Origin: an uncultured Actinomycetes bacterium
GTDB taxonomy: Bacteria; Actinomycetota; Coriobacteriia; Anaerosomatales; PHET01
Assembly (NCBI GenBank): GCA_963770765.1
Contig: CAVYQS010000012.1
Location: 144,404 to 208,403, forward strand
DNA: 64,000 nucleotides
Direction of reading: 5' to 3'
Shown here: one piece after another, positions 1 to 3,020 of the stretch
Layout: every line of letters begins with the position of its first letter
Numbering within the stretch: position 1 is the stretch's first letter
The notes under the pieces: generated by a model
Seen by the model: the letters and a program-made list of their open reading frames with translations, nothing else
What the model was told of the DNA's origin: nothing
Databases searched by the model: none
Program-made: the position numbers and the translations under genes

Positions 1-139
1 CCAGCACGATGATGGGCAGCATCACGAACGAGACGGTGCCCCCATTGGGCATTCTCCAGATCTTGAGGGTGTTGAGCACTGCGGCCAGCGCTATGGCCAG
101 AGCGATCTCGACCAGGATCGCGACTCGCTGTTCACGCAT
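1..139 (-). CDS. thiT: ECF-type thiamine transporter S component ThiT (5' part only, runs off the window)
   Basis: Manual translation from ATG 139: MREQRVAILVEIALAIALAAVLNTLKIWRMPNGGTVSFVMLPIIVL. The 'MP.GG.VS..MLPI' motif matches ThiT/YuaJ. RBS GAGGAG and a TPP-like element lie upstream. Confidence 0.85.
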   Translation of the reverse strand, partial: MREQRVAILVEIALAIALAAVLNTLKIWRMPNGGTVSFVMLPIIVL

Positions 140-222
140 GGTTCTCCTCGCTTCCCGAGCGAACCGGTCGCCCATTGGGTGCGGGGATGCTAGAGGGGAG
201 GCGTCTCGCCTTCGAGACGAAC

Positions 223-314
223 CCGTGGGTGCGTGTCCCGCATTACCGGGACCGTCCTTTCGGTCGCGACGTCGATCCGTCGCCTCTCAGCCACTTTCGC
301 AGCTCCCGACACGG
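223..314 (-). ncRNA. TPP riboswitch-like aptamer, variant with a non-canonical P4/P5 arm
   Basis: Minus strand reads CCGUG-UCGGGAGCU-GCGAAAGU-GGCUGAGAG-GCGACG/CGUCGC-GACCGA...GUCCCG-GUAAUG-CGGGAC...CACGG. The UGAGA pyrimidine-sensor motif and the UAAUG L5 loop are present, directly upstream of thiT. Confidence 0.8.
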
Positions 315-370
315 TATTGAGAGTACGTTCGGATAGTGTCACACCGCCCGCCCCCACGGCAAGAAGCCGC

Positions 371-1378
371 CTATTCCATCCTGCGCAGATACGGGTACGG
401 GTTCGTGGGGGCGCCTCCTCCGCGATGCATCTGGAAGTGCAGATGCGGAGCACCACCGGACGCGTTGCCGGTCGAGCCGACAGTCCCGATGACCTGCCCG
501 GCCTTGACCGACCCTGAGCGCACCACATACCGATCGAGGTGAGCGTAGTAGTACAGCCACCCGTTGTTGCCTCGCAGCCAGATGGTGCGGCCTCCCAGGC
601 CATTGGATCCTACTCGCACCGTGCCCGAGGTGCTCGCAACGACCGGGGTCCCCCGTCGCGCCATGATGTCCGTTCCCTGATGGCGCCGACGACCACCCGA
701 GCGCGACGCACCCCAGGTGTTCGAGTAGTAGTTGGATCCCCGCACGGGAAACACCATCCCGTTAGGTCCGGCCGCGCCAGCGATCCCCGAAGGCAGGCTG
801 CCGCCGGAACGCGACGCGTCCAGTTGGCGCTGCACCTTCCTGAACTCCGCCTCGGTCGACGCCAGCCGCTTCTGCAGCGCGGTGCGCTGCCGCTTGAGTC
901 TGGCGGCCTCCTTCGACCGCACCTTCCGCTCGGCGACGAGCTTCTTCTTCTCGGCGAGAAGGGCTGCTCGCACCGCTTTGACCTCCGCGACCGCGTCCGC
1001 ATCTGCCTCGCCGATGCGCGACAGGTAGTCCATGCGAGTCGTGAACTCCTCGAAGCTCTGAGCCCCCACGAGGAAGCCGACGAGGTCCAGTCCTTCCCTT
1101 CGGTAGATGCTGTTCGCGCGGGAGTTCAACTGCTCGGTAGCCGCAACCAGCCGCTTCTTGGCCTTCGCGATCCTCTTGTTCGTCTTGTTGAGCCGGACTT
1201 CGGTCTCGTCGAGTGCCCAGTGTGCCTTCATGTACTCGCGGCCGGCTCGTGCGCTCTGCGCCTTCAGCTCCTGCAGCCGGGCCCTGAGTGCGGCTTCGCT
1301 GGCACCGTGCGCGACGACGGGGATAAGCATGCCCGCAGCCAAGACGACAACGACCGCTATGTTACGGAGCGACCTCAC
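371..1378 (-). CDS. Secreted coiled-coil plus M23 peptidoglycan endopeptidase (PcsB/CwlO-like N-terminus)
   Basis: Signal peptide, long coiled coil and intact M23 motifs HQGTD, YYAHL and HLHF. GTG start overlaps the upstream stop (GTGA). Confidence 0.9.
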   Translation of the reverse strand: MRSLRNIAVVVVLAAGMLIPVVAHGASEAALRARLQELKAQSARAGREYMKAHWALDETEVRLNKTNKRIAKAKKRLVAATEQLNSRANSIYRREGLDLVGFLVGAQSFEEFTTRMDYLSRIGEADADAVAEVKAVRAALLAEKKKLVAERKVRSKEAARLKRQRTALQKRLASTEAEFRKVQRQLDASRSGGSLPSGIAGAAGPNGMVFPVRGSNYYSNTWGASRSGGRRRHQGTDIMARRGTPVVASTSGTVRVGSNGLGGRTIWLRGNNGWLYYYAHLDRYVVRSGSVKAGQVIGTVGSTGNASGGAPHLHFQMHRGGGAPTNPYPYLRRME

Positions 1379-2601
1379 GGCGACGTGGGTGTCCCATACA
1401 CCTTGCCGATCGCCGCGTAGACTGCGCGAGCGACGCTGTCTGACCACTGGGGGTCCTCGAAGTGATTCTCGTCCACCCGGGCTGACGCCGAGCCGAGTCT
1501 GACCCGCGCCCATGGAGCCCTCGTCGCCTGCAACACCGTGTCCGAAGTGCCACTCACGCTCTCCACCGGCGGAGCCGCTGTCGAAAGCTCACGCGTGATC
1601 TGCGCAGCGATCGCAGCAGACGGTGAGGGAAGTCCCGTCGTCGACGTGCCCTCGGTCGAAACGACTCGACCCGGGTCGCCGGTGGCGGTCACGACGAATC
1701 CGACGGCGACGGTCACGCTGGTCTCAGAGGCGAGCTTGGCCCTGTCGGCGTCCACGGTGCTGCTCGCGCCCGCGGCGCGTAGCATCGTGACCTCGGCACC
1801 GGAGGCCTCCAGCAGTGCGCGCAGGCGACGAGCAACCTCCATCGGAACATCAGGCGCACCGGTGGCCGGAGGAGCGGCGTCGATGACGACGCCTATGCCC
1901 TTGAGACGGTAGGGCTGGAGCGCCACGCCGGGCGAGCTCGATGTGGCGACCTGGACACGAACGCTGTCGCCGGTCCGGACGATGGCGCCCGCGGCGGGAG
2001 TGGTCGACAGGACGGTGTCGCTCGCGGTGTCGGAGACGACCTGTTCCACGATGACCACGAGACCGCGCGCCTCGAGAGTGCCCCTCGCCAAAGTGAGGCC
2101 GTCACCCACGACATCGGGCATCGGGAACTCCTCGCTTCCTCCGGAGATCACCAGACTGACGGTGTCTCCACGCTGGAGCTGGGTCGCCGGAGCGGGGTCC
2201 TGCGCGAGCACCTGGTCGCGCGGCTCCGTCGAGAATCGCCTCTCGGCGACCTCGACCTGCAGCCCCACCTGTTCCAAGCGAGCGCGTGCGACACCCAGGC
2301 TCTCACCGGTCACATCAGGAACGGCTACTCGAGCAAGTGACGCCGCGGTGACGACCCCGGCCACCACGAGTGCAAGCACCGTCGCCGCGATGCCGACACC
2401 GAACCACACGCTCGTCGGCACGAGCGGCGGCCGTGTGGGCCGGACACGCGAAACGGCGGGCAGCTCGGGGAAGTGAGTGGTCTCGTCGGCGGGACGATCG
2501 ACCGGACCGGGCACGGGGACAGCGGCGTCAGAGAGGTCGGCCAGCCATGAGCCGCTCTCTTCGCCTTGGTCGTCTTCGATCGGTTTCTTGTCTTCAGTCA
2601 T
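1375..2601 (-). CDS. Membrane protein with 2 PASTA domains and a degenerate Amidase_3-like C-terminal domain
   Basis: One TM helix, PASTA repeats (VPDVTG, MPDVVG), then 'GVVIDA...VARRLRALLEASGAEVTMLR...DRAKLA', an amidase-fold signature without Zn ligands. Confidence 0.75.
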   Translation of the reverse strand: MTEDKKPIEDDQGEESGSWLADLSDAAVPVPGPVDRPADETTHFPELPAVSRVRPTRPPLVPTSVWFGVGIAATVLALVVAGVVTAASLARVAVPDVTGESLGVARARLEQVGLQVEVAERRFSTEPRDQVLAQDPAPATQLQRGDTVSLVISGGSEEFPMPDVVGDGLTLARGTLEARGLVVIVEQVVSDTASDTVLSTTPAAGAIVRTGDSVRVQVATSSSPGVALQPYRLKGIGVVIDAAPPATGAPDVPMEVARRLRALLEASGAEVTMLRAAGASSTVDADRAKLASETSVTVAVGFVVTATGDPGRVVSTEGTSTTGLPSPSAAIAAQITRELSTAAPPVESVSGTSDTVLQATRAPWARVRLGSASARVDENHFEDPQWSDSVARAVYAAIGKVYGTPTSP

Positions 2602-2723
2602 CAGCTCATCATTATAGCGCGCGACCCGTACCGCGGCGGTTGCGACTACCGAAGTTGGCAGGTATCGTGCTTGTTCGCCGACTCACCATCCAGACGAAAC
2701 ACCCACGAGAGGAGTCCCGGGCC

Positions 2724-2984
2724 ATGCCGACCTACGACTACCGATGTACCGCATGCGACGAGCTCTTCGAGGTGTCGCGATCCATGCGCTCGAGCGAACC
2801 CGAGAACTGCCCTTCCTGCGACGCGCTTGCCAAACGGGTCTTCACCCCCGTAGGAGTCGCCTTCAAGGGCAGCGGTTTCCACAACACCGACTACAAGCAG
2901 CGGCCCACAGACGATGCGCCCACCTGCCCGTCTGCCCAGAAGGGCGATTCGGCCTGTGCCGGCTGCCCGGCTTCCGAGGCCTGA
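2724..2984 (+). CDS. FmdB-family zinc-ribbon protein
   Basis: MPTYDYRCTAC...CPSC...FKGSGFHNTDY; RBS GAGGAG. Confidence 0.9.
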   Translation: MPTYDYRCTACDELFEVSRSMRSSEPENCPSCDALAKRVFTPVGVAFKGSGFHNTDYKQRPTDDAPTCPSAQKGDSACAGCPASEA

Positions 2985-3020
2985 GCGGGCGCCGACGCGG
3001 ACTCCTCCCTGACCTGAAGC

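Follow-up and report, generated by a model that had tools for sequence, protein, structure and literature searches.

A TPP-aptamer variant with a continuous P4/P5 helix precedes thiamine transport and salvage genes in Actinomycetota

No riboswitch class is more widespread than that of thiamin pyrophosphate (TPP), which is also a drug target and whose selectivity for pyrophosphate is textbook knowledge. Solved structures of TPP aptamers place the Mg2+-pyrophosphate in the internal loop of the P4-P5 arm. Natural variants with a mutated pyrophosphate-binding core were reported to bind thiamin, thiamin monophosphate (TMP) and TPP about equally (McCown et al., 2017, RNA 23:995). These P4-P5 variants are stated to be spread over many bacteria and at times to share a genome with further TPP riboswitches, and the underlying work was cited as in preparation by Roth, McCown, Zhang, Lee and Breaker (McCown et al., 2017). 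The passages concerned give the variants without sequences or taxa, and the variants may not include the form described here. A 2022 review from the same laboratory names, in its relevant passages, only TPP and HMP-PP, and full-text literature searches found no later, fuller account of TPP variants altered in the pyrophosphate core. As far as these sources go, the documentation consists of a remark in one review: the kind is already in print as a brief mention, and the class is essentially undescribed. A ligand other than TPP is known in thiamine metabolism from the HMP-PP riboswitch, or thiS motif (Atilho et al., 2019, eLife 8:e45210). A THI element was reported before pnuC-like (PnuT) genes in acI Actinobacteria, thiamine auxotrophs described as outnumbering every other group of freshwater bacteria (Kang et al., 2017, Sci Rep 7:42252).

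The stretch of DNA analysed here (the window, 64,000 nt) comes from an uncultured member of the Coriobacteriia. Its first positions carry, on the minus strand, the start and leader of thiT. A TPP-like aptamer was found in this leader at window positions 314-223, with intact P1, P2, P3, CUGAGA, P3a and L5 and an altered P4/P5 arm. Its parts, in the order in which they would be transcribed, are:
310-314, minus strand: 5' strand of P1, CCGUG, pairing with CACGG at 227-223 (sequence, cmscan)
306-309, minus strand: 5' strand of P2, UCGG, pairing with CCGA at 263-260 (cmscan, alignment)
305 and 304, minus strand: J2/3, G305 and A304, after the 5' strand of P2
290-303, minus strand: P3 hairpin GCUGC-GAAA-GUGGC with its GAAA cap (cmscan, alignment)
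284-290, minus strand: CUGAGAG, the pyrimidine-sensor junction J3/2, in agreement with the Rfam consensus CUGAGA (290-285)
266-283, minus strand: P3a hairpin GCGACG-GAUCGA-CGUCGC (cmscan, alignment)
260-263, minus strand: 3' strand of P2, CCGA (cmscan, alignment)
255-259, minus strand: J2/4, AAGGA, with the final GA invariant
232-254, minus strand: altered arm, 5' CGGUCCCG (254-247), L5 (246-241) and 3' CGGGAC-A-CG (240-232)
246-241, minus strand: L5 loop GUAAUG (sequence)
228-231, minus strand: CACC between the arm and P1 (alignment)
223-227, minus strand: 3' strand of P1, CACGG (sequence, cmscan, leader folds)

The Rfam TPP model (RF00059) matched window positions 319-211 with 30.7 bits (E 0.0021, cmscan), below its gathering score of 54.3 bits. 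A whole-genome search with the same model returned the leader aptamer (E 4e-4) as the sole TPP-like match in this 2.39-Mb, 97.7%-complete genome. No other Rfam family matched window positions 1-3000 at E <= 1 (cmscan, Rfam 15), and the same scan revealed no separate Rfam 15 family for the variant.

The pyrimidine-sensor side of the aptamer was strongly conserved. P1 had at least three of its five pairs in all 61 thiT leaders examined and four or five in 60 of them. An alignment of 115 non-redundant copies (MAFFT) showed the three inner pairs of P2 to be invariant, the outer pair to vary (UA 51, AU 31, GC 12), the CUGAGAG junction to be the same in 115/115 sequences, and CUGAGAGG to be invariant; the pyrimidine-sensor arm of P2, P3 and CUGAGA is present. 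The GAC that spans the end of J2/4 and the first base of the altered arm (columns G62, A63 and C64 of the first sequence) was likewise constant in 115/115. L5 was of the xUAAUx type, with A74, A75, U76 and G77 invariant in the same alignment, and its docking on P3 is predicted. One variant copy (L207:1507-1600, genome G032) has GUAAUU in place of GUAAUG, a change of the last loop base that is invariant in the 115-sequence alignment. An alignment of 100 copies fitted to a model of the variant had two-sided changes in three of the five pairs of P3 (helix 2) and five of the six pairs of P3a (helix 3). By our reading, the CA that opens CACC (228-231) corresponds to the GA found after AGG in the Rfam consensus.

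The other arm departs from the TPP consensus. It forms a continuous 8-bp helix with A234 bulged (G247-C240, C248-G239, C249-G238, C250-G237, U251-A236, G252-C235, G253-C233 and C254-G232), which replaces P4, the 2x2 internal loop and P5. The window reads C GGUCCCG ... CGGGAC A C G where the Rfam consensus reads CCUgAU-P5-CGuAGGGA; the consensus arm has four P4 pairs, the AU/CG two-by-two internal loop, four P5 pairs and then GA, whereas the window has eight unbroken pairs, one bulge and then CA. In the cmscan alignment the P4 pairs were flagged as non-standard and the junction columns were deleted. The arm was not split into P4 and P5 by a conserved internal loop, as a pyrophosphate-sensor arm would be.

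The same arm shape recurred in relatives. A 30-sequence alignment had GAC, seven paired bases, GUAAUG, the complementary strand and a bulge of 0-1 nt, followed by GCA in 28 sequences and GGA in two. The six loop-proximal pairs were formed in 108-115 of the 115 sequences, with base pairs that changed freely: GC 54, AU 36, CG 16 and GU 5 at one position, and GU 39, CG 25, UG 17, GC 16, AU 8 and UA 7 at the next. G-U or U-G wobbles filled one position in 56 of the 115 sequences. In the model-fitted alignment six of the eight arm pairs (helix 4) had changed on both sides and 93.6% of cells were paired. The covariation score for the whole structure was 0.578 versus 0.178 for shuffled alignments (0 of 500 reached 0.578) and at most 0.108 when partners were slid; these values come from an alignment that leans toward the structure used for fitting and so favours pairing. 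The MAFFT alignment gave the same picture for six of the eight arm pairs, the two basal pairs being mis-registered. Sequence conservation in the arm was limited to the loop-closing pairs and the basal C-G. No base identity was conserved at the site of the former pocket, wobbles occurred in both orientations and the bulge was sometimes absent; we therefore saw no replacement pocket.

These results agree in most respects with a preliminary description of the leader. The P2, P3/GAAA, CUGAGA, P3a and L5 elements that it listed were all present on the minus-strand reading and by cmscan, and the RF00059 score was as low as it had anticipated. Its continuous helix lacking J4/5 and J5/4 was recovered, although the helix has 8 bp and the A234 bulge instead of 6 bp. 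Its view that the changes keep pairing, unlike random decay, was borne out by the conservation and covariation of the arm among relatives (six of eight pairs).

The variant is widespread. With the leader as query, blastn matched its aptamer part in 45 of the 61 genomes examined from this order, the window's own included. An arm-specific pattern matched at least 120 contigs among species-representative genomes, which by their record titles belong to Coriobacteriia and to freshwater acI Actinobacteria (Candidatus Planktophila/Nanopelagicus). Some titles look taxonomically mislabelled (among L069, L071, L093, L106 and L060): MAGs titled 'Bifidobacterium breve' have acI-type sequence (40-46% GC), a contig from an 'Alistipes onderdonkii' bin hardly differs, in the compared stretch, from the Coriobacteriaceae loci L068 and L080, and an 'Eubacteriales' MAG has a Coriobacteriia-type leader. 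All 100 loci searched with the variant model (R1) scored 60.3-92.3 bits, and canonical-junction aptamers of the same order scored 36.9-41.9 bits. The score alone is a poor classifier; inspection of the arm, or a score well above about 62 bits, is needed. Scores well above this level occurred in 72 of 151 class-level genomes, a count that was taken from R1 scores alone. Matches of 48-61 bits in other Actinomycetota, a tally that includes three unpublished genomes (G227, G264 and G320), were rejected as variants on the basis of their interrupted, canonical-like arms. An independent metagenome contig (run X2, 220 nt, window positions 189-408) had five differences from the window and an identical arm; its single difference within the aptamer was at position 276, in the P3a loop.

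The gene content downstream links the variant to thiamine transport and salvage. The start of thiT is placed as follows:
1-139, minus strand: start and first 46 codons of thiT (ATG 139-137), the gene running off the window

The 189-aa product belongs to the Thia_YuaJ/ThiT family (PF09515, E 6e-49), in agreement with the preliminary description, and the next ORF, beyond the window, encodes a thiamin pyrophosphokinase (TPK; PF04263, E 6.5e-24; PF04265, E 1.2e-5). The order thiT then TPK was found downstream of the variant in all 31 loci of the order (L002-L031 and L040, L002 being the window's own). Outside the order, 78 downstream ORFs were scanned for families:
56 of 78 ORFs: Pnu-family transporter, all in low-GC, acI-type loci
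11 of 78 ORFs: ThiT
5 of 78 ORFs: ThiD (L048, L056, L059, L061, L067)
2 of 78 ORFs: ThiM (L068, L080)
2 of 78 ORFs: CytX-like permease, PF02133 (L097, L099)
2 of 78 ORFs: no family, at least one an ORF-calling miss (L120 has ThiT and TPK by tblastn)

A salvage kinase or a CytX-like permease, in place of thiT, follows the variant in Coriobacteriaceae-type and other loci. Because ThiD, ThiM and a CytX-like permease also occur downstream, the variant is not confined to one transporter family. The ORF at L073:244-1503 (minus strand) encodes 420 aa with the N-terminal half of ThiT and both pyrophosphokinase domains; a gene fusion, a frameshift and faulty ORF calling are all possible origins. Upstream of the riboswitch, the window has a gene (371-1513, minus strand) for a 380-aa protein that combines a PcsB-type coiled coil with an M23 peptidase domain at its C terminus (PF01551, E 3.5e-24; PF24568, E 1.6e-8), likely a cell-wall hydrolase with no tie to thiamine.

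Eight genomes of the order (G033, G051, G041, G032, G040, G035, G027 and G052) contained a second aptamer type (L032-L039), in which the canonical GAACCUGAU ... GCG.AGGGA junctions are kept and P5 carries a 22-34-nt insertion. These aptamers scored 33.0-43.2 bits with RF00059, also below 54.3, and standard Rfam annotation would miss them too. They were followed by genes for ThiS-like/ThiF and ThiG, for ThiM and ThiE, or for ThiE and ThiC. Both aptamer types were verified in G032 and G035, with the variant before thiT-TPK in each; G052 probably has both as well, its contig ending just past the variant aptamer. The window's own genome had no canonical-type copy beside the variant in the 2.39 Mb searched. 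This census of genes by arm type places the variant before uptake and salvage genes and the canonical pocket before de novo synthesis genes. Retention of the canonical pocket at biosynthesis genes in this lineage indicates selection for it wherever it is required.

No ThiC, ThiE or ThiM was found in the window's genome (97.7% complete), and the ThiD and ThiG families gave weak partial matches of 30.7 and 34.3 bits, compared with 270-355 bits for genuine family members. From the lack of ThiC, ThiE and ThiM the host appears to depend on imported thiamine.

The leader outside the aptamer contains the following features, some of them predicted from platform-only folds:
320-325, minus strand: -10-like hexamer TACTCT, about 6 nt before P1 (tentative, from the sequence alone)
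202-219, minus strand: GC-rich hairpin CGUCUCG-AAGG-CGAGACG, directly 3' of P1 and without a U tract
193-201, minus strand: pyrimidine tract CCUCCCCUC, unpaired in the platform-only fold
181-190, minus strand: GCAUCCCCGC, the likely anti-Shine-Dalgarno and anti-start strand (platform-only fold)
154-179, minus strand: inner hairpin inside the anti-Shine-Dalgarno/Shine-Dalgarno helix (platform-only folds)
144-149, minus strand: Shine-Dalgarno sequence GAGGAG, ending 4 nt before the ATG at 139

A consensus scan of positions 100-420 found no sigma-70-type promoter, and a scan for terminator-like sites after the aptamer found none. Transcription attenuation was not adopted, since the 219-202 hairpin has no U tract, although a terminator without a U tract is possible. 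In the platform-only fold, the Shine-Dalgarno sequence (149-144) and the start codon are both paired to GCAUCCCCGC (190-181), a stretch that recurs in L003, L005 and L007. The anti-Shine-Dalgarno proposed in the preliminary description, CCUCCCCUC (201-193), is present but was unpaired in this fold and not conserved in L003, L005 and L007, and was set aside. Most of the 61 thiT leaders have, after P1, a GC-rich hairpin at the same place, a C-rich strand bound to the Shine-Dalgarno region, and an inner hairpin between the two.

When the aptamer was held closed, base pairing took up most of the Shine-Dalgarno window in the 61 leaders (platform-only folds; mean probability of being unpaired, 0.31). 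Its accessibility with the aptamer closed was lower than without constraint in 26 of the 61 leaders and higher in nine, a weak trend. In many leaders the C-rich strand is complementary to the P1-P2-GGGAGC segment of the aptamer. Of 59 leaders, 15 (about three expected) had a duplex between the aptamer 5' part and the platform that beat 95% of shuffles, and in 41 the duplex shared 3 nt or more with the anti-Shine-Dalgarno strand. In the window's own leader, GCAUCCCCGC lies within the stretch that is best complementary to the aptamer 5' part, with a duplex no better than shuffles (z-score +0.72, not significant). The unpaired probability of its own Shine-Dalgarno sequence was 0.36 with the aptamer closed and 0.46 unconstrained, and the minimum free energy fold of the whole leader was not better than shuffles (z -0.58). 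Because the numbers for the window's own leader are not significant, the OFF step proposed below is drawn from the family and not from this copy.

The reading that we favour, as a probable one, is that this RNA is a translational OFF riboswitch derived from a TPP aptamer that binds the thiamine moiety at any phosphorylation state and senses the total B1 pool. The RNA would retain L5, the three-way junction and the pocket that takes the aminopyrimidine ring, and the pyrophosphate internal loop would have been turned into Watson-Crick pairs. Thiamine, TMP and TPP would be bound alike, and the riboswitch would report the total vitamin B1 pool in a host that seems unable to synthesise the vitamin. 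Without ligand, the 5' part of the aptamer would hold the anti-Shine-Dalgarno strand. At a high B1 pool P1 and P2 would fold and free the C-rich strand 190-181, which would then bind the thiT start codon and the Shine-Dalgarno sequence ahead of it; the thiT ribosome-binding site would be closed, and ThiT uptake and the activation step of thiamin pyrophosphokinase would be turned down. The anatomy, conservation, covariation, gene context and auxotrophy on which this reading draws were computed here, and the relaxed specificity comes from print; we infer that this RNA itself shows relaxed specificity and the OFF mechanism. Several points speak against it: canonical TPP riboswitches control thiT elsewhere, so that the gene context demands no new ligand; repression of the pyrophosphokinase by free thiamine looks counter-productive; the platform results for the window's own leader are weak; and its genome offers no canonical copy as a contrast. 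The loss of the internal loop with pairing kept, the conservation and covariation of the arm, ThiT downstream and the canonical junctions before biosynthesis operons form a pattern that a variant of altered specificity would show. The preliminary description had suggested a changed ligand, which is half right: the pattern fits altered specificity, and the print record is one of lost discrimination with TPP still bound, not of a switch to free thiamine or TMP.

Three other readings were weighed against relaxed specificity. The RNA could still select TPP, with the pyrophosphate recognised in another way, such as by hydrated Mg2+ on the backbone or in a groove widened by the bulge, and with the arm tuning affinity. 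Thiamine uptake and salvage genes are typical TPP-riboswitch targets elsewhere, an operon with a pyrophosphokinase would logically answer to its end product TPP, the 0-1-nt basal bulge and the G-U/U-G pairs (56/115 at one position) could in principle bind metal ions, and the acI element was named a THI element in the account of Kang et al. (2017). The arm, however, offers no candidate pocket, only its loop-closing pairs and basal C-G being conserved; the P4-P5 variants in print cannot substantially discriminate thiamin, TMP and TPP, according to the passages of McCown et al. (2017); and the canonical pocket is kept before biosynthesis genes in the same lineage. We regard continued TPP selectivity as unlikely. 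A new class with a preference for unphosphorylated thiamine (or for another compound with a pyrimidine) that excludes TPP, with TPP governing biosynthesis in the relatives, appears still less probable. In its favour, the pocket for an anionic ligand has been wholly removed and the genes split cleanly from those of canonical aptamers within the order, and within G032 and G035. ThiT and Pnu-type transporters deliver unphosphorylated thiamine, which would suit such a class. Yet a continuous helix offers no evident way to reject a phosphate tail, and the only printed data, in the passages concerned, are similar affinities for all three forms (McCown et al., 2017). An HMP-type precursor, which the preliminary description had also considered as the signal, makes no physiological sense in hosts without ThiE, ThiC and ThiM and is judged unlikely for the window's genome from its lack of ThiC, ThiE and ThiM and its weak partial ThiD and ThiG matches at 97.7% completeness; the acI bacteria are described as lacking nearly all thiamine enzymes (Kang et al., 2017).

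A score of 30.7 bits, under the gathering score of 54.3, might suggest a TPP riboswitch that has decayed and lost its function, or an error of assembly; either is extremely improbable. A look for RNA runs covering window positions 1-700 returned none, a result that favours neither side. At least 120 contigs from two actinobacterial classes share this architecture, the changes in the arm are compensatory, the element has a fixed position before thiamine genes, and an independent contig has an identical arm. The preliminary description had raised assembly error as a concern; relatives and the independent contig showed the same arm. On the strength of the contigs, the arm covariation and the identical independent contig, assembly error and decay were ruled out, and the element is a functional, widespread variant of the TPP aptamer as judged from sequence.

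The acI/Nanopelagicales copies (low-GC loci among L043-L162, such as L046, L093 and L102) seemingly lack P1. The bases before P2 had no more potential to pair with the 3' flank than shuffled ones (3.86 versus 3.93 of 5), and RNAalifold recovered only P2, P3, P3a and P5 as conserved helices in 56 acI leaders. Boxes of the same form as the window's hexamer (TAnnnT) stood just before the aptamer, 11-19 and mostly 13-14 nt ahead of P2, in 86 of 87 low-GC (acI-type) loci versus 1 of 30 high-GC loci. The start codon lay 19-23 nt past L5 in 44 of the 56 leaders, and a purine-rich Shine-Dalgarno run began at the last pairs of the arm, in its 3' strand. This suggests that the acI form is a two-arm aptamer with a transcript starting at P2.

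A broader proposal, which we put forward tentatively, is that the continuous-helix form, instead of being a collection of scattered point mutants, is a structurally uniform Actinomycetota subclass that reads the thiamine moiety alone, with an acI form that has two arms and no P1, a transcript from P2 and a Shine-Dalgarno sequence at the last arm pairs. If this is true, thiamine-dependent lineages would use it to regulate uptake and salvage independently of the de novo pathway, which is under TPP control. The variant is predicted to govern B1 uptake in thiamine-dependent Coriobacteriia and acI Actinobacteria, and it would be a conserved natural form without the pyrophosphate pocket, an aptamer re-tuned by closing its internal loop. 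RF00059 gave no match over its cut-off in any of the 61 genomes of the order or in five further host genomes, so B1 regulons are under-annotated in these groups; the variant model or the arm-specific pattern would recover the elements that Rfam misses.

Compared with the RF00059 TPP riboswitch (THI element), the variant has the same P1-P2-P3(-P3a) and P4/5 arms at a three-way junction, the same CUGAGA junction, GGGAGC segment and GUAAUG L5, the same place in leaders of thiamine transport and salvage genes and, as modelled, a platform acting on the Shine-Dalgarno sequence. It differs in that the P4-P5 internal loop (CCUgAU ... CGuAGGGA) is base-paired and TPP selectivity is doubtful. The HMP-PP riboswitch, in the published passages, has an unrelated fold embedded in a terminator, is an ON switch and is associated with thiS, and bears no resemblance to the element described here (Atilho et al., 2019). 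The THI element of Kang et al. (2017) is the same element as L102 (strain IMCC26103), with a Pnu-family gene downstream, but was filed as an ordinary TPP riboswitch, its arm passing without remark in the relevant passages. RF00059 found nothing at E <= 0.1 in the complete acI genome of L102 (G065), and L093, nearly identical to the L102 element, scored 92.3 bits with the variant model R1. The closest likeness is to the variants of McCown et al. (2017), in which mutations are likewise confined to the P4-P5 core with the rest of the aptamer kept, which likewise occur in many bacteria (here at least 120 contigs) and which likewise sometimes share genomes with the other type, as in G032 and G035. 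The passages on those variants come without sequences, consensus, taxa or genes, and the comparison is one of descriptions, by which the continuous-helix form and the P1-less acI version are possible members of that group. To those descriptions this study adds that the continuous-helix form is uniform, where it occurs in Actinomycetota, how genes divide between the arm types, and a version in acI that apparently has no P1.
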